Positions 1 to 15,857 of a DNA stretch of 35,727 nt are shown one piece after another (the stretch's first letter is position 1; each line of letters begins with the position of its first letter). Both the position numbers and the translations under genes were made by a program. The stretch is from IMG/VR virus record IMGVR_UViG_3300046475_000289; one strand, 5' to 3'. The notes under the pieces were generated by a model. That model was not told where the DNA came from. It saw only the letters and a program-made list of their open reading frames with translations, and searched no databases. Source of the stretch: a virus.

Positions 1-91
1 CTCGACGCGGGCCGCCCGTCGGTTCTCCGCGCTCACTGGGTTCCTTACCTGTGCTCGGACGTCTTCGTGTTGGCGCAGTACGCGGCGCTTC
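1..91. repeat. 91-bp terminal overlap, identical to 35637-35727 (circular assembly overlap or terminal redundancy)
   Basis: Base-by-base comparison: ctcgacgcgggccgcccgtcggttctccgcgctcactgggttccttacctgtgctcggacgtcttcgtgttggcgcagtacgcggcgcttc at both ends. Confidence 0.97.
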
Positions 92-330
92 GCTTCGATC
101 TCGCGCAGCACCCTGGCCGGATCATGCTCGGCGATGAACGCGGCCTGCTCCACGGTCGGGTAACCCTCGTCGTAAGCCACGTGATAGCCGTCATGATCAC
201 CTGAGACGTGAGCACCATTCTCATCCCCGTGGTGGTGCCATCGCCCTTCCGCGCCCTCGCGAGCCGCCAGTGCGATCCGCTCGTCCTCGTCGAGCTGCTC
301 GCCGAGCCACCGCACCAGGTCTTCCGTCAT
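1..330 (-). CDS. DUF6221-like protein, first 110 codons; the gene continues across the window junction into 35636..35553
   Basis: ATG at 330; hand translation MTEDLVRWLGEQLDEDERIALAAREGAEGRWHHHGDENGAHVSGDHDGYHVAYDEGYPTVEQAAFIAEHDPARVLREIEAKRRVLRQHEDVRAQVRNPVSAENRRAARVE runs off position 1 without a stop. Motifs HDPARVLRE.EAKR and C-terminal PYADRPGYREEWRP are recalled from the actinobacterial DUF6221 family. Not in the ORF track because it is truncated by the window edge. Confidence 0.7.
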   Translation of the reverse strand, partial: MTEDLVRWLGEQLDEDERIALAAREGAEGRWHHHGDENGAHVSGDHDGYHVAYDEGYPTVEQAAFIAEHDPARVLREIEAKRRVLRQHEDVRAQVRNPVSAENRRAARVE

Positions 331-416
331 GGGGTCATCCTCTCGCAGTGGTGTCAGCCGCGGGCACAGTCTCGGGAGCCGGTTCCGGGGCGATCTGGGC
401 CGCTCGTGGAGGGGCC

Positions 417-503
417 CGAAACTCGAAACTTCGCAGGTGGGGTCCGATATCGGGGGCGAAACCGGTTTCGGATCAAGGCGAAACCACGGGCTTGATCCGA
501 AAC
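417..503. repeat. Array of CGAAAC(C) motifs (5 direct, 1 inverted) with an embedded palindrome and hairpin; candidate clt-like translocase recognition array or terminator/promoter region
   Basis: CGAAAC at 417, 424, 457, 479 and 498; inverted copy at 464-470 gives the perfect palindrome CGAAACCGGTTTCG (457-470); GGATCAAG (470-477) and CTTGATCC (491-498) form an 8-bp stem whose loop holds another copy. Confidence 0.8.
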
Positions 504-516
504 CGGGTTGAGGGCT

Positions 517-2613
517 CTACTCGGCGTCTTCTGCGGCGGGCAGATCGGCGTACCGGAGGCCCTTGGCGCCGCCGCAGCACTCCCGGATGGTGAGCTGCCG
601 GGTGGACACCTTGTGGGGCTTCAGGGCGGCGGACAGGGCCGTGGACGCTCCGGCGGCGTCCAGCTCGGTCCACGGCCGGTACAGGTCGGCCCGGTACGCG
701 GCGAGGGCCTCGACGAGCCGGTGCGAGTGGACGGTCTCGACTCCGTCGGGCCAGATGGCCCGCAGGTGGTCGAGGACCGTCTCGACGTCCTGCTCTTCGA
801 CCCGGGCGCCGACGGCCTGCCCGGTGAGGGTGCCGGCCGCGGTGCGCAGCGCCAGGGCGCGCTTGCCGATGTCCTCGGCCTCGGTCTGCTTGATGAACGC
901 GGCGCGGACGGTGATGCCTTCGCGGCCGCGGGCGAGGATGCCGGTGCCCTGCTCGTCGATGCTGATGTCGGTGGCCCGGAGGCCGCGGTCGTAGGCGCCG
1001 GTGCCGAGCACGTTGTTGTTGGCGCGCCAGTCCATGACGGCGAGGCACAGGCGGGTGCCGACGGAGCTGGAGACCGAGCTGGGCAGGCTCGGGGCGTCGG
1101 GGTTCTGGGTGAGCAGGATGAGGATGAGGCCGTAGGCGCGGCCCTTCTTGATGAGGCGGGTCGCGAGGGCGCTGGCCTCGTCCTTGTAGTCGGCGTGGGT
1201 GAACAGCTCCTGCACCTCGTCGATGACGATGACGCGCGGGCCGAGCTGCTGCTCCGGGTACTTCTCGGCGAGCGCCCGGGTGACGCGCCGGCCGTCGGGG
1301 ACCTCGGAGGCGGGCAGTCCCTTGATGAACTTGGCGCGCCGCTGGTACTCGGCGATCCCGGAGCGCATCCCGGCGAGGGCGGCCTCCAGGTCCTCGTCCT
1401 CGTCGCCGGACACGTACCGGTGGCAGACGGGCTTGACCGAGTCGAGGTCGCCAGAGCCCTTGAGTTCGTAGATCCACAGCTCGGCGGTGACGTCGAGGGC
1501 GACGCCGAGGACGATGGCGAGCGCGCACGACGTCTTGCCGGAGCCGGGGATGCCGCCGACGAGCAGGTTCGAGTACATGAGGGTGACCTCGATGAGGTTG
1601 CCGCGCGGGTCGAAGCCGTAGGGCAGCGGCTCGTACACGTCGGCCTGACCGCCCTTCATGAGCGGCCACAGCCTCCGGTCGGCCTTGGCCGGGTCCCGCT
1701 GGGCGACCCACAGCACGAGACGCCCGGGGTGGGCGGTGCGGTCGGCCGAGGGCCACACGGTGCTGATGGGGCGGCGCATGGCGGCGGCGAGCGCGGCCCG
1801 TTTCTCCAGGACGGCGGTGGCCTCGACACCGGGCGGCAGGTCGACCTCGGCGCGCCAGCCGGGCCCGTCGCGCATCACCTCGGAGGCGAACTCCACGCCC
1901 TTGCGGCCCTTCCTGCCCTCGATGCCGATCGCGGCGAGCGCGTCGAACACCTCGGTGGAGTCGAGGCGGCGGAGCACGTTGGTGGCGACGTAGCGGGTGA
2001 TGAGCGCCTTGTCGCCCTTCTTGCCGTTCAGTCCGGCCAGGGCGGCGGCGCCGATGTAGGCGGTGAGCGTCCAGCCGGGTACGAGGAACGTGCTGACGAG
2101 GGTGGTGATGCCGGTGGCGGTGGCGACGGCGATGGAGGCGACGCGGCGGGGCCGGACGCGGCGGGAGTGCTCGCGGGACAGGGACAGCCACGCTTCGATG
2201 TCGGCGGACGCGGCGGCCTTGGCCTCGACGGGTCGGGCCTCGGTGTCGGCGACCCAGCGGCCCCAGCGGACGATGAGCCGGCCGGTGCCGCGAGGGGCGC
2301 GCAGGAGCAGCCGCCCGAAGTAGACGGGGGCGCGGAGGGCATGGAAGCCGGCGACGTGTCCGTAGTAGGACGCGGTCCAGCGGACGGAGTTCGTGAAGGC
2401 GTCCCAGCGGCGGAGGGCCGGGGGGACGATGGGCGGGGCCTCGGCGAGGTAGGCCTGGCGTTCGGCGATCCATGTGCCGTCGGCGGCGGGCTCGGGGCGG
2501 TCGACGGGACGCGGCTCGGCGTTCTGGATGATGTCGAGGACGGTCTGCCGGACGCCAGCGTCCTCGGCGTCCTGAGGGGCGTCCTGTAGCGGCTTGATCA
2601 GGCTGTCGGTCAT
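517..2613 (-). CDS. FtsK/SpoIIIE-family DNA translocase, Streptomyces TraB-like
   Basis: 698 aa; Walker A GGIPGSGKTSCA, Walker B VIVIDEVQELF, LILLTQNP motif, hydrophobic N-terminal segment (IAVATATGITTLVSTFLVPGWTLTAYIGAAALAG), C-terminal wHTH-like tail (SHRLVEALAAYRADLY...KVSTRQL). Confidence 0.9.
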   Translation of the reverse strand: MTDSLIKPLQDAPQDAEDAGVRQTVLDIIQNAEPRPVDRPEPAADGTWIAERQAYLAEAPPIVPPALRRWDAFTNSVRWTASYYGHVAGFHALRAPVYFGRLLLRAPRGTGRLIVRWGRWVADTEARPVEAKAAASADIEAWLSLSREHSRRVRPRRVASIAVATATGITTLVSTFLVPGWTLTAYIGAAALAGLNGKKGDKALITRYVATNVLRRLDSTEVFDALAAIGIEGRKGRKGVEFASEVMRDGPGWRAEVDLPPGVEATAVLEKRAALAAAMRRPISTVWPSADRTAHPGRLVLWVAQRDPAKADRRLWPLMKGGQADVYEPLPYGFDPRGNLIEVTLMYSNLLVGGIPGSGKTSCALAIVLGVALDVTAELWIYELKGSGDLDSVKPVCHRYVSGDEDEDLEAALAGMRSGIAEYQRRAKFIKGLPASEVPDGRRVTRALAEKYPEQQLGPRVIVIDEVQELFTHADYKDEASALATRLIKKGRAYGLILILLTQNPDAPSLPSSVSSSVGTRLCLAVMDWRANNNVLGTGAYDRGLRATDISIDEQGTGILARGREGITVRAAFIKQTEAEDIGKRALALRTAAGTLTGQAVGARVEEQDVETVLDHLRAIWPDGVETVHSHRLVEALAAYRADLYRPWTELDAAGASTALSAALKPHKVSTRQLTIRECCGGAKGLRYADLPAAEDAE

Positions 2614-2649
2614 GCTGGTGGCTCCGGTTGCTCGATGGGCGGTCCGGGG

Positions 2650-2692
2650 CCCGGGGACGGCGACGGCTTGCAGGCAGGACGCCGTCCCCGGG
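2650..2692 (-). terminator. 13-bp GC stem hairpin between the 61-aa gene and the translocase gene (terminator or attenuator, no U tail)
   Basis: cccggggacggcg (2650-2662) pairs perfectly with cgccgtccccggg (2680-2692); 17-nt loop. Confidence 0.45.
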
Positions 2693-2698
2693 GCGGTG

Positions 2699-2884
2699 CT
2701 ACTTGCGGCGTGCGGCGTCCTTGGCGTCCTCGCGCTTCTGCGCGTCCTCGCGGATCCGCTCGACGCGGTTCTCCAGGGCCTTGACGGGCTTGCCGCGGGC
2801 CTGACGGCGTTCGATGCGGACGCCGAGGAGGATCACGGCGGCCAACTCGCGGGCGTTGTGCGGGTCCTTGTCGGTGAGCGCCAT
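2699..2884 (-). CDS. Hypothetical small basic protein (61 aa)
   Basis: ORF track; plausible sequence MALTDKDPHNARELAAVILLGVRIERRQARGKPVKALENRVERIRED...; 1-nt gap to the upstream gene. Confidence 0.6.
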   Translation of the reverse strand: MALTDKDPHNARELAAVILLGVRIERRQARGKPVKALENRVERIREDAQKREDAKDAARRK

Positions 2885-2885
2885 G

Positions 2886-3092
2886 TCAGGCCTCCGGGGT
2901 GGTGTCGTCGGGCAGGGCCTGGGCGACGGCGGCGTCCGCGACGGCGATCGATGCCCACAGGGCGCCGGCGGCGGCGAGCGGCTCCGCCCTCTGCCAGCCG
3001 TCGCCCCGGGCCGCGGACTCGGCCTCGCGGGCGAGGGTGGTGGCGCGGTCGATGGCGGCGTCCGCCATCTTCAGGCGCTTGTCTCGGTTCAC
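2886..3092 (-). CDS. Hypothetical protein (68 aa), GTG start
   Basis: C-terminal part of ORF 2886..3236. Trimmed to GTG at 3092, preceded by CAGGAGGAACCC (RBS). The N-terminal extension is Pro/Ser-rich off-frame-like sequence overlapping the upstream gene. Confidence 0.6.
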   Translation of the reverse strand: MNRDKRLKMADAAIDRATTLAREAESAARGDGWQRAEPLAAAGALWASIAVADAAVAQALPDDTTPEA

Positions 3093-3105
3093 GGGTTCCT
3101 CCTGT

Positions 3106-3405
3106 TCAGCGGTGCTTTTGGATGTCGCTCCAGATGGAGCGGAGGACGAGGGCGAGGATCGCGACGGACACGGCGCCGATGGCGACGGCGATGGCGAACA
3201 GGGAGGCGACCAGGCCCCCGGCGATGCCGAGGCCACCGATGGTCAGCCACTTCCGGGCGTCGAACTCCTGCCGGGCCTGCTGCGGGGCGGGCGTCTGCTC
3301 CGCGGTGGCCTTCTGCACGGCGAGGATTGCGGTGATCGTCCGCATCAGCTCGGTGTTGTCGGCAGCCTCGACGGCGTCCCGGGCCGCCTTCTCGATGTCG
3401 CTCAC
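3106..3405 (-). CDS. Small membrane protein (99 aa) with a C-terminal pair of TM helices
   Basis: GTG at 3405 overlaps the upstream stop (GTGA); hydrophobic WLTIGGLGIAGGLVASLFAIAVAIGAVSVAILALVL. Confidence 0.65.
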   Translation of the reverse strand: MSDIEKAARDAVEAADNTELMRTITAILAVQKATAEQTPAPQQARQEFDARKWLTIGGLGIAGGLVASLFAIAVAIGAVSVAILALVLRSIWSDIQKHR

Positions 3406-4349
3406 GGGTTGCCCCCGCCCGGCCCGGCCAGTGCCTTCTCCCGGTCGTACAGGGCGTCGATGGTGTCCCATGCCCCGGTCAGACCTTGGGCGTTCATCTC
3501 GGCCCGCATCGCCGCACGGAACTGCCGCTTCGAGGGCGGCGGGTCGGTGGCGTACAGCTCGGCGGCGAGCATCGCTACCGCCTTGCTGTTCGCCGTCCGC
3601 GGCCCCTCCAGCGGGGGCGTGCCAGAACCGTGACCGCCCTGCGTGACCGCCAGGCTTGAACCCCCCGTGCCACCTGCGGTTTCGTCGTCCGGCACACCCC
3701 CCGCGAGGAGGGCCTGCAACTCGGTGTCGGAGACCAGGGCGGGAAGGTCGGTGTGCCAGTCCGGCAAGGGGTGCTCGTCCACGATCTCCGCGTACCGCTC
3801 GAACGCGTCGTGGGTGGTCGTGATGGCCTCGGCTTCCGCCTCCCGGGACGCCTTCACGATGTCCGCGGCAGCGAGGGTCTCGTCGGCCCGTGCCGCGGCC
3901 ACGGCACGGGAGACGGCGATGCGGTCACGCGTGATGGCACGGGTTCGGTCGATGGCGGCCTGCGCCCGCGCGCTGATCCGGGTGCGCTCCCGGTCGATCG
4001 CCATGACGAGCGTCGTCTTCGCGAGGACGGGGATCAGGGCGCCGACCGCCGCGGCGAGAGCGTCTCCGGCGAGCGCCCCGTGCACGGCGAGGACCGCAAC
4101 GGTGAGGGGCAGGAACACCCACCCGATGACCTTGGGGAGTCGGGCACTGGATCCCTGCCGGCGGTGCGCGGTCTCCTGCGCGAGGGCGTACAGCCAGACG
4201 GCGTCGTAGAGGACGGCGACGGAGTAGGCGAACGCGGGGTGGGCGGTCGCGGTGAGGATGCTGCCGATCGCGGCGACGGCCCACACGACCGCGACGGCGG
4301 TAAGGATGGCGGGCAGCAGCCAGGGCGCTGCCTTCCTGACGTGGTTCAC
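3402..4349 (-). CDS. Polytopic membrane protein, DUF2637/Spd-like (N-terminal approx. 4 TM helices plus soluble C-terminal domain)
   Basis: 315 aa; N-terminus PWLLPAILTAVAVVWAVAAIG..AYSVAVLYDAVWLYALA..VIGWVFLPLTVAVLAVHG..AAAVGALIPVLAKTTLVMAI; located upstream of a TraB-like gene as in actinomycete integrative/conjugative elements. Family assignment is from memory. Confidence 0.5.
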   Translation of the reverse strand: MNHVRKAAPWLLPAILTAVAVVWAVAAIGSILTATAHPAFAYSVAVLYDAVWLYALAQETAHRRQGSSARLPKVIGWVFLPLTVAVLAVHGALAGDALAAAVGALIPVLAKTTLVMAIDRERTRISARAQAAIDRTRAITRDRIAVSRAVAAARADETLAAADIVKASREAEAEAITTTHDAFERYAEIVDEHPLPDWHTDLPALVSDTELQALLAGGVPDDETAGGTGGSSLAVTQGGHGSGTPPLEGPRTANSKAVAMLAAELYATDPPPSKRQFRAAMRAEMNAQGLTGAWDTIDALYDREKALAGPGGGNP

Positions 4350-4597
4350 GGGGTGTCCTCTCGGAACGACGCGTAGTCGCCGGGCGGGTAGACGTAGTTA
4401 CTGAGGGCGCCCTCGGCGGCGACGGCCGCAGCGCCGAGGGTGGCGACGACCGCAGCGGTGCCGGCATGCCCGTGCTGCGCGGCTGCCTGCGCCGTTACGG
4501 CAGCGAGCTGGGTGGCGCGGCGGGCGGAGGCGGGGGAGCCGTCGGGCGTGTTCATCGCGGAGTACAGGGCGTCGCGGGCCCGGTCGCGGAAGCTCAC
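4346..4597 (-). CDS. Hypothetical Ala-rich protein (83 aa)
   Basis: ORF track; 4-nt overlaps with both neighbours. Confidence 0.55.
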   Translation of the reverse strand: MSFRDRARDALYSAMNTPDGSPASARRATQLAAVTAQAAAQHGHAGTAAVVATLGAAAVAAEGALSNYVYPPGDYASFREDTP

Positions 4598-4968
4598 TGG
4601 CCACCGTCCCGGAGCGCGTCGAGCTGGTCGGCGAGGCCGCGGAGCCGATCGGCGTACCGGTCGAGGTCAGCGGCCAGGCTGTACAGCTCGGTGGCGTCGA
4701 GGGTCTGGCCGAGCGGGTAGACAGAGACGCCGGGCGCCCGGCCGCCGAGGTGCCTGTCGGAGGACTCGGCGTAGGGGGACTGGACGAGCTCGGCGGCGAG
4801 CAGCGTGCGGCCGAGGTAGAGGCACTCGACGACGGGGCCGGCGTGGATGAGGTCGACGCGCTGGGTCTCGGGGTCGTGGTGGGCGTGGCCCGCGCACCAC
4901 GTGGGCTCGGGCAGGGCGACCGGGCCGTGGTCGGCGGTGGTCAGGGTGACGGTGCGCAGCTCGGTCAC
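4594..4968 (-). CDS. Hypothetical protein (124 aa), possibly DUF6907-like
   Basis: ORF track; PTWCAGHAHHD motif and C-terminal coiled-coil-like LDRYADRLRGLADQLDAL; family assignment is weak and from memory. Confidence 0.6.
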   Translation of the reverse strand: MTELRTVTLTTADHGPVALPEPTWCAGHAHHDPETQRVDLIHAGPVVECLYLGRTLLAAELVQSPYAESSDRHLGGRAPGVSVYPLGQTLDATELYSLAADLDRYADRLRGLADQLDALRDGGQ

Positions 4969-5303
4969 TGGTCCTCCCCTGCGGGGAGCGCGACGGCCTC
5001 GGCCCAGGTCTTGCCCTCGTTGAGGGCGGCGTCCGCCTGGTCGACGGTGACGTAGCCGGTGACGGGGTGCTGGGCGAGACGGTCGCGCAGGTAGCGGGCG
5101 TCCCAGGCGGGGCCCATGGCGGGGCTGAGCTCGGCGTCATCGAGCGTGCTGCGCAGCGCGAGGCGGGCGTACATGACGCGGTCGTTGAGGAGCCGGTCGT
5201 GGGCGTCCTGGCCGCCGTAGGTGGCGGGGTGCGGGATGTTGATCGCTTCGAGGACGGCGGCGAGGAGGTCGCGCACCGGCTCGGGGATGTCGATGTTGGT
5301 CAC
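4965..5303 (-). CDS. Hypothetical protein (112 aa)
   Basis: C-terminal part of ORF 4965..5738. GTG at 5303 overlaps the upstream stop (GTGA). Sequence VTNIDIPEPVRDLLAAVLEAINIPHPATYGG... is protein-like, whereas the track N-terminus is Arg/Pro junk. Confidence 0.6.
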   Translation of the reverse strand: MTNIDIPEPVRDLLAAVLEAINIPHPATYGGQDAHDRLLNDRVMYARLALRSTLDDAELSPAMGPAWDARYLRDRLAQHPVTGYVTVDQADAALNEGKTWAEAVALPAGEDQ

Positions 5304-5458
5304 CGGGCGTCCGCCTTGCGGATGCTGCTGCCGGTGGCGCCGGCCGCGGTGACGCGCACGGTGATCGTGCGGCCGGGGGTGCGGCGGATGATGCCGGCCG
5401 CGACGAGGCGGCGGCTGGGCTGCGCACTGGTCAGTGCGCACGGAATAGACTCCGGCAT
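5300..5458 (-). CDS. Hypothetical small protein (52 aa)
   Basis: ATG at 5458 preceded by CCAGGAGGACCGGCC (RBS); MPESIPCALTSAQPSRRLVAAGIIRRTPGRTITVRVTAAGATGSSIRKADAR. Confidence 0.5.
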   Translation of the reverse strand: MPESIPCALTSAQPSRRLVAAGIIRRTPGRTITVRVTAAGATGSSIRKADAR

Positions 5459-5559
5459 GGCCGGTCCTCCTGGTTGAGTCAGGGGGTTCTGGTCTGGGGT
5501 CGGGCGACGCGCGCGCCTCGGGTGTTCCACCACCCGGGAGCTGTCGTCCGGCCCCGCTT

Positions 5560-5808
5560 CTATTCGGTTGTCGAGTACTTCTTGATCGCGTCGTTGACGG
5601 AGGTGTAACTCCGTCCGACGTCCTTCGCGACCTTGTAGGCGCTGCCGAGTTCGGCCTTGCCGTCGGCGAGCGCCTTGCCGCGCCGTTCGAGCGCTCCGGA
5701 CAGTTGCGATTGGAGCTGTTCCACCAGCTCTTCCTCACGCCTGAACCGGACCCGCCAGGGTTCCTCGGTCACAACGGAGAGACTATCACGGGGGGCCGTT
5801 ATAGTCAC
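5560..5808 (-). CDS. Small protein with C-terminal HTH-like segment (82 aa)
   Basis: GTG at 5808 overlaps the upstream stop (GTGA); C-terminus LGSAYKVAKDVGRSYTSVNDAIKKY resembles an HTH. Confidence 0.5.
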   Translation of the reverse strand: MTITAPRDSLSVVTEEPWRVRFRREEELVEQLQSQLSGALERRGKALADGKAELGSAYKVAKDVGRSYTSVNDAIKKYSTTE

Positions 5809-6443
5809 GCGTTCTCCTTCGGCTGGAAGTGCGCGAGCAGCAGCAACTCCTGCTCCGTCCGGTACGACGCCCCGCACCACCGGCACCGCACCACCTCACC
5901 CGGCAGCCGGGACAGCACCGCACCGCACACCGCCCCGTCCACCGCCGCGATGCACAACCCGAGCCGCTGACGACGCGGCAGCGGATCCCCGACGAGCGAC
6001 CGCAGCTGGGCCTCCAACTCGCGGACCTCGCGCGCCAGGTCGCCGGCCGCCGGGTAGTGGACGACGATCCACTCCAGCTCCATCGACAGCCACCGGCAGT
6101 CCGCGGCCAGCCCGGCCGGGGGCGGCGCCGCGTGCTGCGGCCACCGCTCCCGCTGGACGTCCACCCGCCAGGAGTGCACGACCTCGCCCGCCCGGTTGCC
6201 GTGGATCTCGTCGAACACCGCCTCGTTGATCGGCGACCGCGGGCCAGCGGCCGACCGCGTGGCGACCAACTCGCCGAACCCGGAACGCGCGGGCACCAGA
6301 TGCATGGTCAGCTCGGCGTCGAGGTCGGGCAGTTGGGCGAGGCGCCGGACGAGGGTGACCGCGTCCCGCTCGCACAGGTACCGGCCGTCGGCCTCGCCCT
6401 CGCACAGCCCGCAGGCGTTCACGGCTTGGTCGTTGAGGGTCAC
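5805..6443 (-). CDS. Hypothetical protein (212 aa) with N- and C-terminal Cys pairs (possible zinc ribbon)
   Basis: ORF track; CGLCEGEADGRYLC near the N-terminus, CGAVLSRLPGEVVRCRWC near the C-terminus. Confidence 0.65.
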   Translation of the reverse strand: MTLNDQAVNACGLCEGEADGRYLCERDAVTLVRRLAQLPDLDAELTMHLVPARSGFGELVATRSAAGPRSPINEAVFDEIHGNRAGEVVHSWRVDVQRERWPQHAAPPPAGLAADCRWLSMELEWIVVHYPAAGDLAREVRELEAQLRSLVGDPLPRRQRLGLCIAAVDGAVCGAVLSRLPGEVVRCRWCGASYRTEQELLLLAHFQPKENA

Positions 6444-6473
6444 GTCGGCCTCCCTTCTCTGGCTGGTCGCTGA

Positions 6474-6950
6474 TCAGAACGGGGGCTCGTCGCTGTGTCC
6501 TGCGCTCTGCGCGGCGGGCTGCTGGTTGCCCCAGCCGCCGCCCTGCTGCTGGCCGCCACCGTGTCCGGATCCGGACACGCCGCCCGCCGGGTTCTTGGTG
6601 ACCTTGGCGGTGGCGCGGGCGAGGGTCGGGCCGACCTCGTCGACGTCGAGCTCGTACACGGTCCGCTTCACGCCCTGGCCGTCCTCGTAAGACCGCTGCT
6701 TCAGCCGACCCTGGACGATGACGCGCACGCCCTTAGCGAGGGACTCGGCGACGTTCTCGGCGGCCTGCCGCCACACCGAGCAGGTGAGGAACAGGGCGTC
6801 GCCGTCCTTCCACTCGTTGGCCTCGCGGTTGAAGACGCGCGGGGTGGAGGCGATGCGGAACTTGGCGACGGCGGCGCCGGCCTGGGTGAAGCGGAGTTCG
6901 GGGTCGTCGACCAGATTGCCGACGACGGTGATGACGGTCTCGCCTGCCAT
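6474..6950 (-). CDS. ssb: Single-stranded DNA-binding protein
   Basis: ATG at 6950; [40 protein letters not shown]-fold signature, Gly/Gln-rich linker, acidic tip DEPPF. Confidence 0.95.
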
Positions 6951-7011
6951 GGCGGGGCTCCTTCGGGAGTGGTGGTCGCGGTGACCACCGGTTGCGGGAT
7001 GCTGGGTGGGA

Positions 7012-7040
7012 GGCCGGGCCCGATATCCGCGGGCCCGGCC
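7012..7040 (-). terminator. 11-bp perfect GC hairpin upstream of ssb (attenuator/terminator)
   Basis: ggccgggcccg (7012-7022) pairs with cgggcccggcc (7030-7040); 7-nt loop; no U tail. Confidence 0.4.
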
Positions 7041-7053
7041 GATTGCGTGCGGG

Positions 7054-7452
7054 TTAGGCCGAAGTGCTGCTCTGCCACGGGTCGGTGTTGAGGAACTGCT
7101 CCCGCTGGAACGCCTGCGCGAGGTCATCCAGTTCGGCGGCGAGCCGGTAGACCGGGCCGAGGGGCATGCCGACCGGGGTCTCTGCGCTGCGGAAGAAGTA
7201 GGCGAGCCAGCCCTGGACTACGTCGCGGAACACGACCGGGTTGCCGTGGAGTTCGCCGCTGTCGAGTCGGCGCAGGCTGGCCTCCAGGGTGGTGAGGGCC
7301 GTCCGTTCCCCGGCGTTGAAGGTGGGGTCCTCGGCGAAGTAGTGGAGGTCTTCGGCGAGGCCTTCGATCATGCTGGGGGCGACGGCGTTCCAGAGGCCGG
7401 TGATGCGAGCTGCGGTGAAGTCGTCGACGTCGGTGATGGTGGTGCGGTGCAT
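7054..7452 (-). CDS. Hypothetical protein (132 aa)
   Basis: ORF track; protein-like composition; RBS-like GGAGAACCACC before the ATG. Confidence 0.65.
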
Positions 7453-7486
7453 GGTGGTTCTCCTTCGGTTGTTGGCTGGCTGCCGG

Positions 7487-8128
7487 TCAGCGGCCGATGA
7501 ACAGCTGGGGCAGGGCAGACAGTTCGCGCCAGGCCGCCCTGTACGCCTCGACGGGCAGCAGCTCGGCGACCTCGGCCGAGCTGCGGAGGGGGCGCTGATA
7601 GGCGTCCGCGAAGTCGGCCGGAAGGCGCTCGGCCTGCTCGTCGTAGCCGGTCCGATCGAAGACGGACAGGGCCAAGGGCCCCACCGTGCCAGCGAACCGG
7701 ACGCCTTGGACGTAGACGGTCGCTCCGATCTCTCGGGTGGTGACCGAGCGGTGGACCTTGAGATCTCCGTGCTCCGCGCGGGGCGTATCCCGCCGGGCGC
7801 CTTCGTGGATGCGGGCCGTCACGTACTCGGCCACCAGCGGATGCCGGAGGTACGCGTGCTCCGGGGCCAGGACGAACCCGCGGCGCAGCTGGTCGCCGAG
7901 CTGCCACACGACGTGCAGGTGCTCCTTGGCGTCGTCGCATCGGTCGGGGTGGTAGTTGACGATTCCCCACGGGGTGCCCTGGACGTGTCCGGTGTTGTCG
8001 ATGGCCGGCTGCTCGATGAGCTGGCGGAAGATGCCCTGGGTCATCTGCTTGGAGCCGACGTTCAGGGTGCGGATCTGGACGGTGGCTGTCTCGATGGACG
8101 TGCTGTCCGGCGTGGGCTGGGTTGCCAT
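7487..8128 (-). CDS. Hypothetical protein (213 aa), first gene after the AT-rich island
   Basis: ATG at 8128 preceded by CCAAGGAGAGAC; the track N-terminal 33 aa are Pro/Arg-rich leader sequence. Confidence 0.65.
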   Translation of the reverse strand: MATQPTPDSTSIETATVQIRTLNVGSKQMTQGIFRQLIEQPAIDNTGHVQGTPWGIVNYHPDRCDDAKEHLHVVWQLGDQLRRGFVLAPEHAYLRHPLVAEYVTARIHEGARRDTPRAEHGDLKVHRSVTTREIGATVYVQGVRFAGTVGPLALSVFDRTGYDEQAERLPADFADAYQRPLRSSAEVAELLPVEAYRAAWRELSALPQLFIGR

Positions 8129-8252
8129 GTCTCTCCTTGGGGTGCGGCGGCACGGGTGCGGGTTGTTTCCCTTTTTTCCATGCCGTGCAGGGGTGGGGAT
8201 CGGGTGGCGAGGTGGCCTGTTGCTCACGGTCCGCGCATGACCTCTCCCCTCA

Positions 8253-8315
8253 TTGATTACAGAGAGTAATAATTACTCTTTAAATTGGCTTACGGGGAGA
8301 CCTGTAAGTAATCAA
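8253..8315. promoter_or_regulatory. AT-rich island with nested palindromes (candidate ori or middle promoter/operator)
   Basis: Perfect 8+1+8 palindrome AGAGTAAT-A-ATTACTCT (8263-8279), flanked by TTGATTACAG (8253-8262) and CTGTAAGTAATCAA (8302-8315, imperfect inverted copy). Local GC is far below the rest of the window. Confidence 0.55.
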
Positions 8316-8361
8316 GGGCAGTCCTCGGCCTCCCCTCGGGCATGGAATTAATGGAAAGAAC

Positions 8362-9927
8362 TCACCCGGCCTTCGCCTTGAACGTCTCCGGGTGCGCGAC
8401 AAAACGAGACTTCGGCGGCCGGCCGCGAGCCCCGTCCTCGCGCGGCGGAGGGTCGATCCTCCGGACCCACCCGGCGTGCTCCAGCACGCCGATAGCGGCG
8501 TCCACGTCCTCCATGGCCGTGCACCACTTCTGGCCCCGCACGGCCTTCTCCACGTCCTTCGCAGCGAACCGACCCCGCTGCTCGGCACGGCGCACCCAGT
8601 CCAGGACGGCGCGCGCGGGACCGAGCTTGGACTGCCGCTCCTCCGACATGAGGTCAGCGACCAGACGCGCGTGCTGGATCAGGTACGGCACGAGGGAGAT
8701 CGCGTCGTCCATCACCTCGCCGCTCACGGTCAGCGTGGTCGGCTCCTCGTACAGCGCGAGCACCGCGGCGATCCGCAGAACCTGACCGGGCAGCTTCTTC
8801 GCCCAGCCCTCCACCGCGGCGAGGTCGCCGTGCGCCTTGTGTCGCGGCTCCAGCGCTTCCCAGAACGAGCGGAAGAGATCCTGCGCCTTCTGGTCCAGGC
8901 TCATCACCCGGTACTCGGGGTCGTCGTGGATCGTCTGCATCATCCGGACGACGGCCGCGTTGTACGCGGCGGTCACCTCGGCCGGGATCGGATCGCTGTC
9001 GTAGGTCCGCTCTCCGACTCGGCTGGTCGGCATGGCGAAGATGAACCGGGCCATGAGGCCGCGGGCCTCGAAGACGTCGCCGGTCTCTCCCATGCCGGTG
9101 AGGAACCCGGGCTGCACGGCGAGACCGAGGCTGAGGTTCGGGCGCTTGAGCAGGACGGGCGGGCCGCTCTTGCGGTTGACGGAGTGCGTCTCGTGGCTCC
9201 ACGCCTTGAGGACGATCTCGGGGTTGGCCGACTTGCTGTACCGGCCGCCGACGTTGCCGAGGAACGATCCCTCGGTGGACAGCACGGCGAGCCGCTCGCC
9301 CTGCTCGGCGATCAGGTCGATGGCAGCCTCGGGCGTGGTGTCGTCGGCGACCAGCTGGGTGTGCACGAGGGGGTCGCCGAGTTCCTCCAGCTCGGAGTAG
9401 GCAGCTTCCAGGTTCTGCTTCGCCTTGCTGCGGGCGGCGGAGTCCTTCGCCTTGATGACGCGGTTCTCGGCCTCGGTGACCGCGGCCTCGGTCATCTTCC
9501 GGTCCCGCCGGTCCCGGACGACCGCGACCTTGTCGGCTTCCCTGCGGCGTTCCTCCTCCGCGTAGATCGGCTTGCCCATCAGGCTCAGGGCTGGCGACTT
9601 CATCTCTCCGGGGGCGGCGACCGGCATCGTGTACAGGGTGACCGGCTCGGTCCAGTCCGGCTTCGGGCTCACGGCCCGGCGTCCGCCGATCGCAGTGGAG
9701 ACGGCGGCCATCCCGAGCCAGGCCGGCAGATCGACGGGCACCTGAAGGCTGGTGGACACGGCCTGCGCCATGACCCCGATGCCGCGCAGTCGACCGGAGT
9801 CGAGCGGCAGCGGCGGCGGGGGCGCCAGGGGGACCGCTTCGTCCCACCCCTGGCTGTCCTCGGCGTGGACACCGGACGACCAGTCGGGTTCCTTGACGTC
9901 CTCGGCCCAGTTCGGCTCTTCGCTCAT
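8362..9927 (-). CDS. DUF3987-like protein (primase-associated, helicase-like replication protein)
   Basis: 521 aa; motifs LAVLSTEGSFLGNVGGRYS and ARFIFAMP recalled from DUF3987; immediately downstream of and overlapping the Toprim primase gene; C-terminal wHTH-like tail. Confidence 0.6.
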   Translation of the reverse strand: MSEEPNWAEDVKEPDWSSGVHAEDSQGWDEAVPLAPPPPLPLDSGRLRGIGVMAQAVSTSLQVPVDLPAWLGMAAVSTAIGGRRAVSPKPDWTEPVTLYTMPVAAPGEMKSPALSLMGKPIYAEEERRREADKVAVVRDRRDRKMTEAAVTEAENRVIKAKDSAARSKAKQNLEAAYSELEELGDPLVHTQLVADDTTPEAAIDLIAEQGERLAVLSTEGSFLGNVGGRYSKSANPEIVLKAWSHETHSVNRKSGPPVLLKRPNLSLGLAVQPGFLTGMGETGDVFEARGLMARFIFAMPTSRVGERTYDSDPIPAEVTAAYNAAVVRMMQTIHDDPEYRVMSLDQKAQDLFRSFWEALEPRHKAHGDLAAVEGWAKKLPGQVLRIAAVLALYEEPTTLTVSGEVMDDAISLVPYLIQHARLVADLMSEERQSKLGPARAVLDWVRRAEQRGRFAAKDVEKAVRGQKWCTAMEDVDAAIGVLEHAGWVRRIDPPPREDGARGRPPKSRFVAHPETFKAKAG

Positions 9928-10784
9928 GCCTGCCCCCGGTCGGCAGGGTGAGGGACGGGCGCCCAGACCTGGTTGAACTCCGAGTCCTTGTGACCGGCGG
10001 CGAAGTGGTCGTGGGCGTCCTTGCCGGTGAGGGCCTGGACCACGTACACCGTGCGGGCCAGCCCGCGGAGCGACGCGACGACCAGCTCTGCGTGCTCGCG
10101 GCCCTTGGGGTCGCGGTCGGCGACGATCGTCACGTCCGCGCCTTCGAGGTACGCGGCGTGCTCAGCCACCCACTTCCCGGACCCGGCCGCGTTGCAGGTG
10201 GCCACGAGCCCGTGGTCGACGAGCGCGTGTACGTCCTTCTCGCCCTCGGCGATCCAGATGACCCGGTCCGCTTCCTTCGCGGCCAGCAACTCGGGCAGCC
10301 GGTAGGGGACGAGGGGTACGAGCCGGTTGCCCTCCTTGTCGTTGAGGGACCAACGGCGTCCGGAGCGGGTGCCGTTGTCCGGCCGCCACTGGGCGAAGCA
10401 CTTGTTGTCGCAGCGGGTCACGCCGTGGACGACCGCCTTGTTCTCGTTGCGGTAGACGTACTGGGCGACCCGCTTGTGGCCGCGGTCCTGGCAAGGGATC
10501 CACGTGTCGTCTTCGGGCCTGTCGCGCGGGCGTTCGGCCAGCGGCTCGTCGAACAGGTCGGCCTCGGTCCAGCCGATCGCGGCGAGGAAGTCGGTGTTGC
10601 CGTCGCACTTGTGGCAGTGGATGACGACGCCGCCGTTGTTGCCGCGCCGAACGGCAACGGTGTCCGGGGAGTCCCCGTCGTGGCAGACACCTTGGACGCG
10701 CAGTGCGCCGCCGCTGAACCGGTGCTGAAGACCGAGGTCGCGGACGCGGTCGGCGAGCTTGTTGTAGGCGATCCCGTCGGTCAC
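9924..10784 (-). CDS. Toprim-domain DNA primase with N-terminal zinc finger
   Basis: GTG at 10784 overlaps the upstream stop (GTGA); CHDGDSPD..HCHKCDG zinc motif; Toprim IWIAEGEKD and IVADRDPKG. Confidence 0.8.
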   Translation of the reverse strand: MTDGIAYNKLADRVRDLGLQHRFSGGALRVQGVCHDGDSPDTVAVRRGNNGGVVIHCHKCDGNTDFLAAIGWTEADLFDEPLAERPRDRPEDDTWIPCQDRGHKRVAQYVYRNENKAVVHGVTRCDNKCFAQWRPDNGTRSGRRWSLNDKEGNRLVPLVPYRLPELLAAKEADRVIWIAEGEKDVHALVDHGLVATCNAAGSGKWVAEHAAYLEGADVTIVADRDPKGREHAELVVASLRGLARTVYVVQALTGKDAHDHFAAGHKDSEFNQVWAPVPHPADRGQA

Positions 10785-11089
10785 GTGGTCACCTCCGGGA
10801 AGTAGTACGTGCCGGTCGGGAGGCCGATGCAGCGCGAGCGTCGGGGGCAGACGCGCGGTGCCGAGGCGAGGCCGGCGGAGTGGACGTGCTGGGTGCCGCA
10901 GAACGGGCAATCGACGACGAGGAGCGCGCGCGGCTCGTCGGGTGTTTCACCTGAAACGGTGTCGCGGTAGGCGACGAGGCGGGCCGCGGCGGCGGCCATG
11001 CCGAGAGCGGACGGAGGCGACTGGATCGGCGCCTCGTCCTGCTCGGTGTCCTCCCCGAAGATCGGGAGGACGGTGGTGGTGCTGTTCAC
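10781..11089 (-). CDS. Hypothetical Cys-containing protein (about 102 aa; start uncertain)
   Basis: C-terminal part of ORF 10781..11254; candidate GTG at 11089; CPFCGTQHVH...CPRRSRC. Confidence 0.5.
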   Translation of the reverse strand: MNSTTTVLPIFGEDTEQDEAPIQSPPSALGMAAAAARLVAYRDTVSGETPDEPRALLVVDCPFCGTQHVHSAGLASAPRVCPRRSRCIGLPTGTYYFPEVTT

Positions 11090-11139
11090 GAACGTGCTCT
11101 CTTCTACGAGCGGGGCCAGTGAGGTTCGTGAGTGCGCAA

Positions 11140-11173
11140 GCGGCCCCGGGCCTGGGGGTTGGCCCGGGGCCGC
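11140..11173 (-). terminator. 13-bp perfect GC hairpin after the 75-aa gene
   Basis: gcggccccgggcc (11140-11152) pairs with ggcccggggccgc (11161-11173); 8-nt loop. Confidence 0.5.
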
Positions 11174-11187
11174 CAGCGTTACCCCGG

Positions 11188-11415
11188 TCAGCCGGAGTTG
11201 TTCCGCTTGGTCTTGGCGACCTGGTCGCCCACGGCGATGACGTCGTTGATCCACCGGCGGACGGCGGTGAGCACCGTGACCGGGCTGGGCTGTTCTTCGA
11301 GGTGGATCCGGATGTTGTCGAGGATCAGCTCATGCCGGGCGTGCTCGGCCGCGCGCTGCATGTACAGGTCTTCGGGGACCAGGTCGATGGGCTCGTCCGG
11401 CGGGGTACGGGTCAC
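11188..11415 (-). CDS. Hypothetical protein (75 aa)
   Basis: ORF track; 4-nt overlap with the upstream gene. Confidence 0.6.
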   Translation of the reverse strand: MTRTPPDEPIDLVPEDLYMQRAAEHARHELILDNIRIHLEEQPSPVTVLTAVRRWINDVIAVGDQVAKTKRNNSG

Positions 11416-12077
11416 CGGTGGCCCCCGTCCAGGTCGAGGGCACCGAGGGGACCGCGCCGGATCTGCTCGCGGGCGACCTCGGCCGAGGGCAGCGGACCCT
11501 CGGCGAGGATGGCGTCCGTCATGGACTCGCCCGTCTCGTGCACGGTGCCGTCCTCGGCGATCCGCACGGTCTGGAACTGGTCGCCGAGCCCGGTCTCGAC
11601 CATGACCCGGCGGAAGGCGGGCTGAGCGTTGGCCATCAACTCCCCGCCCCAGGGGCCGTCGAGGGCGAGCAGGAGTGCCATCTGCCAGTTGCAGACGTCG
11701 AGGGTGTGGGTGGTGCCGTCGGCCCCGTAGACGGTGACCGTGTCCACCCGGGGCGGTACGGCCGGCTCTACTGCGGCTTCGGCGATCTCGTCGTCACGGA
11801 CCCGCTCCCACTGCTGCCGGGTCGCACCGGTGGCCAACAGGACGGAGCCGACGAAGTACCAGTCACTGTCCCCGTCCCGCGGGTCGGCGAGAACGGGGAT
11901 CAGCTTTTCCGGGAGGCCCATGAAGGTGACGGCCTGCTGGCTGTCCGTGAGGTGGCGGCCGTGGCGTTCCGCGAGGTCGCAGACCGACAGGACGGTCTGG
12001 CCGTCGTGGGCGGCCAGTGCTCCGGACTCGATGTGTCCGTGGATCGTGGCGCGGAAGGTGTCCGGGGCGAAGTTCAT
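11412..12077 (-). CDS. Hypothetical protein (221 aa)
   Basis: ATG at 12077 overlaps the upstream stop (ATGA), preceded by CAGGAGGCGGC; the track N-terminus is off-frame-like. Confidence 0.65.
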   Translation of the reverse strand: MNFAPDTFRATIHGHIESGALAAHDGQTVLSVCDLAERHGRHLTDSQQAVTFMGLPEKLIPVLADPRDGDSDWYFVGSVLLATGATRQQWERVRDDEIAEAAVEPAVPPRVDTVTVYGADGTTHTLDVCNWQMALLLALDGPWGGELMANAQPAFRRVMVETGLGDQFQTVRIAEDGTVHETGESMTDAILAEGPLPSAEVAREQIRRGPLGALDLDGGHR

Positions 12078-12295
12078 GCCGCCTCCTGGCTGTTCGGGGT
12101 GGTGATGGTGGAGAAGGCGGTCCTGATCACGGCCCGCTGGTGGTCGCTGAACGGCGGCGCCGACGAGACGATCGCGTCGATGCGAGCCCAGTACGCGGCG
12201 TTCCGGACGGGGTCCTCGAAGCGGACGGGACGGTCGCCGCGGGCCGGACGGCCGGAGACAACTCCGGCCGTCGCGGTCTTCCCGGGGGCAGTCAC
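12074..12295 (-). CDS. Hypothetical protein (73 aa), GTG start
   Basis: ORF track; GTGA overlap with the upstream gene. Confidence 0.5.
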   Translation of the reverse strand: MTAPGKTATAGVVSGRPARGDRPVRFEDPVRNAAYWARIDAIVSSAPPFSDHQRAVIRTAFSTITTPNSQEAA

Positions 12296-12897
12296 TCGCC
12301 CGCCTTCTCGCCGAGGTGGGCGCGGAGCTGGTCCAGGACCTCGTGCGCGTCCATGCTGTGGGGGACCAGGACGAGTCCGGACTCGGGCCAGACAATAATC
12401 TGTCCGTCGAACTGGTCGTCGGCGCTCGCGTTCGCTCGCGCCAACCGCAGGTTGTTCTCCGCCGCGATCTGGTTGGCCATCGCCTGGAAGATGACTTCGA
12501 GGACGGTATCGACGTCGTTGGCCTCGATGAGCATCTCGCCGAAGGTGTTCAGGACCCGCTCGTACTGGGCGTCCCAGAGGCCGGCGTCCTTCGCGGCCTG
12601 CTTGTCGAGTTCGAGCTGCGCGAGCGCACGGGTCACCTCGGGGGAGCGCGCGGGCTGGGCGGGCTGGCTGAGTTCGGCCGTCATGCCAGCGGCGATCGCG
12701 GCGGCGGTCTCGGGCGTGTAGTGCTCGGGGAGGGCCTTCCGCATGGCCTGGTCGACGGCCTCGGGCAGGGCCTCGACGACCTTGTCCCGGCTTGCGGTGA
12801 GGATGCGCTCCATCATCTCGTCGGCGGGGGACTCCTTGCCCGCCGGTGCGTAGGGCGGGGTGGGCGACGACGCTGTCGCCATGGCAAGGTTGCGCAT
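12292..12897 (-). CDS. Hypothetical acidic protein (201 aa)
   Basis: ATG at 12897 preceded by CGAAAGGATCCTC (RBS GAAAGGA). Confidence 0.6.
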   Translation of the reverse strand: MRNLAMATASSPTPPYAPAGKESPADEMMERILTASRDKVVEALPEAVDQAMRKALPEHYTPETAAAIAAGMTAELSQPAQPARSPEVTRALAQLELDKQAAKDAGLWDAQYERVLNTFGEMLIEANDVDTVLEVIFQAMANQIAAENNLRLARANASADDQFDGQIIVWPESGLVLVPHSMDAHEVLDQLRAHLGEKAGE

Positions 12898-12963
12898 GAG
12901 GATCCTTTCGCAGCGGCGCATGGGGGCGGCCTGGCAGTTGGCCCCGGCGTCGCTGTTTTTCAG

Positions 12964-13221
12964 TTAGCGCTGGTGAGAGGTGACTCGTGTGGCGTTGGCG
13001 TCGAGGTGGCCTGGCAGCTGTTCCTCGGCGTCAACGCTCTTGGTGCTGGCCTGCGAGAGCAGGGCCTCGTCGAACTCGCGGATCGCGGTCTCCGGGTACA
13101 GGAAACGCCTCCCGACCTTCGCCCCCTTGGGGCCGTAGCCGATGTGCCGCCAGTACCGGATCGTGCTTGAAGCGGTGCGGTAGCGCTCCGCTACCTCCGC
13201 CGTCGTGAAGTAGTGCTGCAT
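12964..13221 (-). CDS. Excisionase/MerR-type HTH (HTH_17-like) DNA-binding protein; Cro-like early regulator or RDF/Xis candidate
   Basis: MQHYFTTAEVAERYRTASSTIRYWRHIGYGPKGAKVGRRFLYPETAIREF matches the excisionase-family HTH pattern; divergent from the XRE gene. Track start 13230 is a TTG; ATG at 13221 preferred. Confidence 0.7.
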   Translation of the reverse strand: MQHYFTTAEVAERYRTASSTIRYWRHIGYGPKGAKVGRRFLYPETAIREFDEALLSQASTKSVDAEEQLPGHLDANATRVTSHQR

Positions 13222-13322
13222 GCCGTTCAACCTCGTCAGGGATGGGCGAGGGAGCTTGGATCAGCCTCCTGATGCTGCTGAAGCATGCCAGCGCTTTCGC
13301 CACCCCGTCAACCTTGCTGGGG

Positions 13323-13351
13323 GTGACGCCGTCGCGTGTCGTCGCTACCAT
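13323..13351 (+). promoter_or_regulatory. Candidate sigma-70-type promoter for a leaderless repressor transcript
   Basis: GTGACG (13323-13328), 17-nt spacer, TACCAT (13346-13351), 8 nt to ATG 13360; no RBS precedes the ATG. Confidence 0.3.
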
Positions 13352-13359
13352 CGATCCTC

Positions 13360-14163
13360 ATGAAGGATGAGCGCAGTTCAACGCCAGCCAACGAACCCGA
13401 TCTGGATGCGGACGCCCTACGTGTGGCGTTGGGTCGCCGCATGAGGATGGCGAGGGTGAACCTAGGTCTCTCTCAACAGGCCGTAGCTGACGCGATGATG
13501 GGGCGCGGCTTCAGTTGGCGGCAGACCACGGTGGCCAAGACAGAGGCGGCCGATAGGCCGGCCCTTTTCACGGAAGTCGTGGCACTCTCATCGATTCTGA
13601 AGCGGGAGCTGAGCTATTTCCTAAGCGGGCGGACTGCGCTAGACGAGGTGAAGGAGGAGTTGCAACAACAGACGAACGATCTGAAGCATCAGATGGACCA
13701 CGCAAAGAGTCAGCTCGCCTACATCGAATCGAATCTAGCGAAAGCTGTCGTGGTTGAGGGGGTCATGCTGGCCATCGTTGAATTCTCTTACACGCTGGAC
13801 ACGTCACGGCTAAAGCAATCTTTCGAGGCTTTCTCGCAAAGCCGTGCGTTCGATGTTCCTTCGCTGAAGCGCGTGCTTGATGCCGCAGGAGTACCAGCCC
13901 ACCAGGTAGAAGAGGTGGATCAGATGGGGCTGACTCATGCGGCCCGAGAGGTAAAGGAGAAGGGGGTGACGGGCCCGAGCGAGTGGTTGCCGGGGTTCGG
14001 AGATAAGGAGATTCCTCTTTCGGCGGCGCACTACCTGGAAACAGGAAAGTCTCCTACCTACTTTCTCGACTACCTGCGTCGCCGTGAGACATACGTGAAC
14101 ACTGTGTGTCCGCTGCTAGTCGACGACGTCATCGACTGGGTCGAATCGAGGAATCATCCTTGA
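13360..14163 (+). CDS. XRE-family HTH protein with uncharacterised C-terminal domain; candidate prophage (CI-like) repressor
   Basis: LGRRMRMARVNLGLSQQAVADAMMGRGFSWRQTTVAKTEAADRPALFTEVVALSSIL is a classic HTH_XRE. Plus strand, between int and the early operon. Clearly lower GC and many A/T-ending and CTA codons. Alternative GTG start at 13336. Confidence 0.8.
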   Translation: MKDERSSTPANEPDLDADALRVALGRRMRMARVNLGLSQQAVADAMMGRGFSWRQTTVAKTEAADRPALFTEVVALSSILKRELSYFLSGRTALDEVKEELQQQTNDLKHQMDHAKSQLAYIESNLAKAVVVEGVMLAIVEFSYTLDTSRLKQSFEAFSQSRAFDVPSLKRVLDAAGVPAHQVEEVDQMGLTHAAREVKEKGVTGPSEWLPGFGDKEIPLSAAHYLETGKSPTYFLDYLRRRETYVNTVCPLLVDDVIDWVESRNHP

Positions 14164-15665: not shown

Positions 15666-15684
15666 GCTCTGAGTCTGCACCCGT

Positions 15685-15738: not shown

Positions 15739-15757
15739 GGAAAGATCTTGCTCGAAA

Positions 15758-15779: not shown

Positions 15780-15857
15780 ATGCCCTTGACCTGCGCTTAT
15801 GTCGCCGATTTCCACAGCCTGTGGGCACGCCTTCGAATCCAAGGTTGGGTGCAAAAC

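Follow-up and report, generated by a model that had tools for sequence, protein, structure and literature searches.

A putative conjugation-type DNA translocation cassette with a candidate clt-like site in a temperate tailed phage

The mycelia of Streptomyces are divided into compartments, which raises the question of how the genome of a phage spreads past the one that it entered. The conjugative plasmids pSVH1, pIJ101 and pSG5 possess TraB-clt-Spd systems with an FtsK/SpoIIIE motor that has a membrane-associated N-terminus, and the clt site was described as direct 8-bp repeats bound by TraB (PMC4447253). The SpdB2 protein of pSVH1 has an N-terminal coiled-coil oligomerisation domain at aa 1-99 (PMC4447253). 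Surveys of integrative and conjugative elements of actinomycetes (AICEs) treat FtsK matches in prophages as noise. FtsK-like genes in Streptomyces phages were discussed only with regard to a possible link to replication or to host development (for the latter, PMC13587820), and SpdB2 homologues on the actinophages phiC31 and VWB are cited as a lone SpdB2-like gene. The literature searched yielded no account of a phage carrying a TraB-type motor together with a cognate clt-like array. The present analysis concerns a candidate locus of this kind in the IMG/VR virus record IMGVR_UViG_3300046475_000289, of which a stretch of 35,727 nucleotides (the window) was analysed. At 416-4968 it contains a 698-aa FtsK/SpoIIIE translocase, a set of small and membrane proteins and a 91-nt repeat element. 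An earlier reading made from the letters alone, here called the original prediction, had proposed that this region is a plasmid- or AICE-style DNA translocation module carried by a tailed phage.

The 3' end of the early operon is probably, with rather modest confidence, a conjugation-type cassette for translocation of double-stranded DNA which would move the phage genome through the mycelium. Among the mechanisms considered, virion-independent movement of phage DNA appeared to be the best supported. The original prediction was supported at the level of homology and architecture, and it was extended by a candidate clt site, which is new relative to it, and by apparent natural swaps of specificity. 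The module is organized as follows.

4594-4968, minus strand: DUF6907 protein of 124 aa, first conserved gene of the module (Pfam DUF6907, 7e-26; upstream of the module in 35 loci)
4346-4597, minus strand: Ala-rich protein of 83 aa, translationally coupled on both sides (few related loci have it)
3402-4349, minus strand: four-transmembrane (TM), putatively SpdB2-like protein of 315 aa (family alignment, hhalign)
3106-3405, minus strand: protein of 99 aa with a two-TM hairpin in its C-terminal part, its gene translationally coupled to that of the 315-aa protein (GC content at third codon positions, GC3; family in 23 related loci)
2886-3092, minus strand: soluble helical protein of 68 aa, 'p68' family (GC3, gene call; 13 related loci)
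2699-2884, minus strand: basic protein of 61 aa with a weak DUF6257 match (E 0.069), immediately upstream of the translocase
517-2613, minus strand: TraB-like FtsK/SpoIIIE translocase of 698 aa (Pfam, PHROG and PDB matches)
416-506, minus strand: candidate clt-like element of 91 nt, directly 3' of the translocase gene

The coordinates of the open reading frames (ORFs) and the three 4-nt start/stop overlaps (4594-4597, 4346-4349 and 3402-3405) given earlier were confirmed on the sequence. GC3 of 0.85-0.96 across the module ORFs marks them as coding. The 99-aa reading lies inside a 121-aa ORF, and GC3 marks the GTG at 3405 as its coding start. The counterpart of the 61-aa protein in S. scabiei carries PF19771 (DUF6257). 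The whole module and the replication genes are parts of one dense run of minus-strand genes, all read in one direction. Scanning of 1-6500 for sigma-70 promoters and terminators gave no informative result. The gene order matches spd-spdB2-orf-traB of pSVH1, in agreement with the tra/spd operon layout that had been proposed. As in pSVH1, coupled small ORFs including a four-TM protein precede the motor gene, and 7-8-bp repeats with one inverted pair follow it. Unlike the Streptomyces conjugative plasmids, the present system resides in a 35.6-kb tailed phage, its repeat is GGTTTCG, no GntR-type TraR/Kor gene adjoins it, and it is known from sequence.

The 698-aa protein matched Pfam FtsK_SpoIIIE (PF01580) over residues 346-505 with 28.7 bits (cut-off 24), PHROG 1358 ('FtsK/SpoIIIE-like') at 5e-28 and, over residues 237-562, the structure of the Pseudomonas aeruginosa FtsK motor (2iuu, 1.5e-6). 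The motor domain spans residues ~250-595, with a Walker A motif (GIPGSGKTS) at ~355 and a Walker B motif (VIVIDEV) at ~461. A pair of hydrophobic helices at ~159-196 was predicted as TM by Kyte-Doolittle scan in most orthologues, and the AlphaFold2 model was helical there with low confidence. This full-length model, built from an alignment of 31 sequences which are all at least 84% identical, had a mean predicted local distance difference test score (pLDDT) of 39 and was not used for fold search. The N-terminal hydrophobic segment and the Walker motifs that had been named as hallmarks of TraB are therefore present.

The placement of the motor was based on match strengths in tblastn and pairwise comparisons. 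One of its main matches is the Tra protein of NZ_CP107792, an 18.4-kb AICE-like Streptomyces plasmid, with 41% identity across 627 aa, a span that takes in the N- and C-terminal regions. The gene set of this plasmid is the classic one of an AICE and comprises GntR, NUDIX, XRE, DUF2637, prim-pol, YfjI, a helix-turn-helix (HTH) protein and a tyrosine integrase. The translocase showed 31% identity to pSVH1 TraB over 347 aa of the translocase domain (E 8e-35). In tblastn it matched 54 plasmid records versus 2 isolated-phage records, both of which are copies of Streptomyces phage Gilgamesh (25% identity, E 2e-8). The best matches of pSVH1 TraB among isolated phages were at E 7e-7 or worse, and the solved FtsK motor structures matched the translocase at ~1e-6 only. 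Judged by these matches, the motor belongs to the Tra lineage of plasmids and AICEs and not with the 'FtsK-like' proteins of actinophages. It shares the FtsK/SpoIIIE domain and PHROG 1358 with the proteins of Gilgamesh and the cluster J mycobacteriophages but differs from them in being only 25% identical to the best one. Grouping with a phage-specific FtsK clade was the outcome against which the earlier assignment had been set, and the profile and homology comparison placed the motor with Streptomyces plasmid and AICE Tra proteins instead.

The original prediction knew of no clt-like site connected with such a motor. A repeat array was found directly after the TAG stop codon of the translocase. 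Read on the minus strand it has the order CCGGTTTCGG-ATCAAG-(loop with GGTTTCG)-CTTGAT-CCGAAACCGGTTTCGCCCCCGATATCGG...AGTTTCGAGTTTCGG. Six GTTTCG hexamers, five direct and one inverted, are arranged around a 16-bp hairpin with arms at 506-491 and 477-462, followed by CGATATCG and tandem AGTTTCGAGTTTCGG. Six of the nine GTTTCG hexamers of the genome fall into 87 nt inside the element, a concentration equalled in 0 of 200,000 random placements. The same k-mer scan applied to pSVH1 recovered its known clt in the same position, as five or six copies of GACCCGGA with an inverted pair forming a hairpin. At the equivalent position, the plasmid NZ_CP107792 has CGATAGC repeats, and TAGAGGGG repeats stand in a second phage clade whose translocase shows only 28-31% identity.

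In ~85 of 97 related loci the element shows almost no variation. Its inner hairpin stem covaries, with 90.8% of cells paired and 48 cells changed on both sides (reached in 0 of 500 shuffles), whereas its GGTTTC blocks (outer stem, loop and 3' flank) are without any change. With a covariance model the element was found in 55 related genome loci, the Nocardiopsis AICE described below among them, in exactly one full copy each and invariably just 3' of the translocase; the 1.27 Mb scanned contained no further copy. The distance from the translocase reaches ~550 nt where an extra ORF has been inserted. No Rfam family was found for the element in a permissive search of 250-650 or in a gathering-threshold search of the whole window. 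The interval 416-506 is thus proposed as a candidate clt-like site specific to the translocase. Other roles were considered for it and rejected. A cos site is disfavoured by its position ~1.5 kb upstream of the HNH-terminase region and by its presence in an AICE, an attP site by its occurrence independent of integrase type, and replication iterons by the fact that the repeats switch along with the translocase, although the replication proteins keep 87-90% identity.

More than 400 protein clusters matching the translocase were found, of which the best 120 are 83-100% identical and come from Streptomyces genomes, including S. scabiei 87.22, and from metagenomes. From species-representative genomes 58 loci were retrieved, and 44 more from IMG/VR, many of them on contigs of 34-42 kb (numbered with L below). 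Synteny was analysed by gene calling and iterative hidden Markov model searches on the genome set and the earlier loci. The conserved block upstream consists of DUF6907, a polytopic protein of 250-450 aa, a two-TM protein of 57-59 aa, a two-TM protein of 105-125 aa, one or two small proteins and the translocase of ~700 aa. The window lacks the 57-59-aa protein, and its 99-aa protein belongs to the 105-125-aa family. Downstream of the translocase, some loci have late genes (a terminase in 28 loci or more, roughly half of which also have portal and capsid), and others have tail genes in convergent orientation. No other gene comes near the translocase in conservation: its identity is 83-94% across more than 100 elements, compared with TerL, which falls as low as 30%. 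The intact ORF, the conserved synteny and the invariant cis element indicate that the cassette has been under selection, as far as can be judged from comparison of the loci. The DUF6907 proteins often occur in two or three copies per element (L001 and ~35 related loci), one of them always immediately upstream of the membrane-protein genes.

The survey among phages and AICEs that had been suggested showed that the cassette also stands in a canonical AICE. Locus L055 of Nocardiopsis codii (5764-16786) carries a 58%-identical translocase and the same GTTTCG element without virion genes. A NUDIX gene and a membrane protein gene adjoin this translocase on one side; on its other side prim-pol, DUF3987 and a tyrosine integrase lead on to host genes. 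Locus L058 was listed alongside it as the same kind of AICE. AICEs and phages of different genera thus have the cassette in common. Together with NZ_CP107792, L055 provides the nearest full-length relatives of the motor outside the phage-associated clade. Further likeness of the phage to AICEs was found in its DUF3987/YfjI-type replication helicase, its integrase and its HTH_17 excisionase-like protein. Unlike them it encodes a complete virion as well as lysis functions, its integrase is of the serine type, and the integrase lies between structural and early genes, not at the edge of a tra-rep block. The phage has integration, replication and Tra-like genes but also the full head-tail-lysis module, and by definition it is not an AICE.

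Several pairs of loci distinguished the translocase from the genes around it. The clade 2 loci L059 and L106 share replication-region proteins with the clade 1 locus L069 at 87% (891 aa) and 90% (489 aa) identity, and L059 shares TerL, portal and the next gene with L007, also of clade 1, at 90-92%. Their translocase is only ~30% identical to that of clade 1, and the repeat is TAGAGGGG instead of GGTTTCG. L107 and L049 form another swap pair, and the replication, terminase and portal proteins of the swap pairs are 85-92% identical. Since translocase and repeats were replaced together while the replication and packaging proteins were kept, the repeats track the pump and not the replication or packaging genes. 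The pump and its candidate site are thus exchanged as one cassette. The GGTTTCG array also persists across unrelated replication modules (Toprim, prim-pol and fused primase-helicases) and across different integrases and downstream genes.

The C-terminal segment of the motor follows the same pattern. The conserved ~100 aa at the C-terminus (STALSAALKPHKVSTRQLTIRECCGGAKGLRY) include the segment STALSAALKPxKVSTRQLTIRECCGGAKGLRY, which is kept wherever the GGTTTCG array is present and is replaced by a different sequence in clade 2. In the Nocardiopsis AICEs the C-terminal segment is 67-74% identical versus only 35% at the N-terminus. Taken together, these relations argue against the element being a cos site, an attP site, an origin for replication proteins or a late promoter. 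They form the pattern expected of a DNA-binding domain and its cognate site, a pair predicted here from the alignments. The original prediction had described the C-terminal tail as winged-HTH-like. A model of the C-terminal 103 aa (pLDDT 70) has the order helix-strand-helix-helix-helix-strand, and its top Foldseek matches are winged-helix domains (African swine fever virus I73R, TFIIIC eWH, Rok, Fur and TubR). The fold match did not reach significance, all E-values being 0.6 or more, and the winged-HTH fold is a tentative assignment. In four Actinomadura/Spirillospora loci (L044, L046, L048 and L051) the element matches the covariance model on the opposite strand with rearranged motif order, and the translocase C-terminus is ~50% identical. 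This variant may represent a diverging specificity.

The 315-aa protein was predicted earlier to be a polytopic membrane protein of Spd or DUF2637 type and the 99-aa protein to have two TM helices. Four hydrophobic helices were seen by alignment in ~9-117 of the former, followed by a charged, helical and Pro/Gly-rich C-terminal half, and a hydrophobic hairpin at residues ~53-92 of the latter. The relation to SpdB2 was borne out at profile level only in part. The 315-aa protein had no match to Pfam DUF2637 (PF10935) at E <0.1, pairwise BLASTP against three DUF2637/SpdB2 proteins was not significant, and tblastn found no relative of it in plasmids and isolated phages, nor any match of SpdB2 in isolated phages. 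Its close homologues carry PF27080, and some of them are named DUF2637 or spdB by their sources. Among 228 relatives collected by exhaustive profile search, 3 of the 67 scanned matched DUF2637 weakly (best 0.0016). Alignment of the family profile with a 25-sequence SpdB2 alignment by hhalign gave a probability of 70% and an E-value of 4e-5 over 116 columns covering all four TM helices; reversed and 23 column-shuffled controls all gave E of 0.1 or more. The same slot in L008, L044 and L046 is filled by proteins matching DUF2637 at 1e-9 to 1e-17. These results support, short of proof, that the 315-aa protein is a divergent SpdB2-like protein. Unlike pSVH1 SpdB2, it stands outside Pfam DUF2637 and has no N-terminal coiled coil, since TM1 starts at residue ~9 and the charged helical stretch follows the TM domain. 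In contrast to the lone SpdB2-like gene of phiC31 and VWB, as these are cited, motor, candidate clt and several membrane partners occur here together as a conserved cassette.

A similar arrangement was found in pPaSha2 of Pseudonocardia alni (L004), a phage-like replicon with DUF2637 directly upstream of an FtsK/TraB-like gene which is 40% identical to the window motor. It differs in genus and flanking genes and has no GGTTTCG element. The record, a 41.9-kb circular 'plasmid' encoding capsid, protease, portal, terminase, holin and Bet, probably represents a phage or phage-plasmid that has a module of this type.

On the proposed mechanism, the 698-aa TraB-like ATPase would presumably be a membrane-anchored hexameric pump, and its conserved C-terminal domain would presumably recognise, as a clt-like site, the GGTTTCG array that lies just downstream of the gene. 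By means of this pump the genome of the phage (circular, excised or replicating) would pass across the cross-walls of a hypha or enter hyphae next to it, with the SpdB2-like four-TM protein and the small two-TM proteins forming the envelope-spanning part. Because the cassette shares its minus-strand gene run with the replication genes, the module would act after infection or induction. The phage would gain a virion-independent route through the mycelium.

Several observations weigh against this proposal. The membrane protein of the window has no Pfam DUF2637 match, the winged-HTH fold of the C-terminus is not established (pLDDT 70, no Foldseek match at E <0.5), and a hairpin right after a stop codon could be an operon terminator. 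A Kor gene adjoining the translocation module was not found, and neither was a NUDIX/Pif gene among the proteins scanned, not every protein of the window having been run against Pfam. The motor clade is found mostly in prophages, although canonical AICEs belong to it, and transfer by any of its members is a prediction. A lytic programme that kills the compartment may also leave little time for spreading.

Among competing explanations the best surviving one, in our view unlikely, is that pump and site form a segregation device within one mycelium, like FtsK/SffA at sporulation septa, without transfer to other individuals. Episomal or replicating phage genomes would then be moved into prespore or neighbouring compartments, and the phage would be inherited or carried by spores. 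The motor is after all an FtsK/SpoIIIE homologue, a directional recognition array beside its gene would serve this purpose equally well, and the literature ties phage FtsK-like genes to host development (PMC13587820). Its nearest relatives, however, are conjugative Tra proteins, including that of a canonical AICE, and not chromosomal FtsK, and an integrating prophage is already inherited with the chromosome.

A role in host takeover or exclusion, in which the membrane ATPase together with its partners would keep out incoming plasmids, AICEs or phages, or would disturb segregation of the host chromosome, instead of moving phage DNA, was judged improbable. In PHROG the family is placed in the category 'moron, auxiliary metabolic gene and host takeover', and weak PADLOC matches were obtained to the FtsK-like ATPase parts of mad8 (4e-12) and SspH (8e-10). 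These matches cover the generic ATPase core only and are far weaker than those to TraB and AICE proteins, and a defence role of the PADLOC type was rejected on this ground. Exclusion would also leave unexplained a cis repeat array that co-varies with the translocase, and the gene lies in the early replication run, not beside the repressor.

Just as improbable is that the element is unrelated to the ATPase, being an early terminator with a late promoter or operator, an iteron origin or a packaging site, with the ATPase aiding replication or concatemer handling. Its hairpin, right after the stop codon, covaries like an RNA or terminator stem, and 8-bp repeats with a hairpin also occur at the pMEA300 RepAM origin (PMC2440964). 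Against this, the element stays with the translocase whether late genes, convergent tail genes or AICE replication genes lie downstream, and it is present in an AICE without packaging genes. From one translocase clade to the other the element differs, although the replication, terminase and portal proteins retain 87-92% identity, and the invariance of outer stem, loop and flanking motifs is unneeded for a terminator. It is very improbable that the phage carries the cassette along without a role for it, as a piece of an AICE acquired by recombination. A family common to AICEs and swapped between phages would suit this reading, but the ORF is intact, its identity is 83-94% in hundreds of elements, the synteny upstream is conserved and the cis element does not vary, a pattern that points to selection.

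If the translocation reading is true, the phage would have a second, virion- and receptor-independent mode of spread, by which prophages, and possibly host DNA next to them, could pass from strain to strain. A broader proposal is offered only tentatively, that a widespread lineage of temperate tailed phages of Streptomyces and also Actinomadura is conjugative as well, its genomes passing as double-stranded circles between hyphal compartments or mycelia by way of a TraB-type pump and a clt carried by the phage. Cassettes of different specificity would be swapped among phages and AICEs, and the boundary separating virus from conjugative element would blur. The C-terminal domain and the GGTTTCG array would form a directly testable protein-DNA pair, with natural swaps (GGTTTCG versus TAGAGGGG) at hand in phages that are otherwise nearly identical. 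For annotation, AICE finders based on FtsK_SpoIIIE and the phage label 'cell division protein FtsK' both misdescribe a large class of elements.

The remainder of the window belongs to a phage genome. Nucleotides 1-91 are repeated exactly at 35637-35727, giving a closed unit of 35,636 bp (circular assembly or terminal redundancy). The GC content of the window is 70%, and GC3 frame analysis placed nearly all genes on the minus strand. The other genes located in it are listed below; where a strand was recorded it is given.

34500-34778: HNH endonuclease
33894-34331, minus strand: P-loop protein of 145 aa (PHROG 'terminase small subunit', also ATPase and polynucleotide-kinase families)
31924-33453: large terminase, TerL (PHROG profile)
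30765-31910: portal (PHROG profile)
28788-30002: major head protein (PHROG profile)
22085-25117: tape measure (PHROG profile)
Minor tail protein (PHROG profile)
17343-18110: endolysin (PHROG profile)
16523-16813, plus strand: GntR-type HTH-only protein of 96 aa (Pfam GntR, 2e-16)
14154-15908: large serine integrase, between structural and early genes

The virion and lysis genes matched PHROG profiles at 1e-24 to 1e-83. Terminase, portal, capsid, tape measure, tail, lysis and integrase genes lie in one unit, and the element is a temperate siphophage of HK97 type. The co-occurrence of a complete virion, lysis genes and a serine integrase with the module, as originally described, was borne out by the PHROG matches and the integrase match. 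The early operon also encodes an HTH_17 protein, a Toprim primase, a DUF3987 helicase and a single-stranded DNA-binding protein (SSB). No similarity to deposited phages was found at DNA level beyond the SSB gene, and no tRNA genes were found in the window.

The original prediction likewise knew of no Kor-like regulator linked with such a motor. The gene at 16523-16813 is the sole clear plus-strand gene and lies between the integrase and the lysis genes. Its product is of the same family as TraR/KorA and is without an effector domain. A GntR-type HTH gene was thus found, but it is short, ~14 kb separate it from the translocase and, on the opposite strand, it is transcribed by itself, so a prophage repressor is more likely than a Kor.

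The counterpart of the 145-aa P-loop protein in S. scabiei has a faint AAA_33 match, and the small-terminase label of this protein is doubtful. A DUF6221-like gene starting at 329 on the minus strand spans the junction of the closed 35,636-bp unit. The lowest-GC stretch of the window, 13231-14153 (0.61 versus ~0.70), shows no strong sign of coding. Situated between the genes for the HTH_17 protein and the serine integrase, it is a candidate for an attP or a regulatory region.

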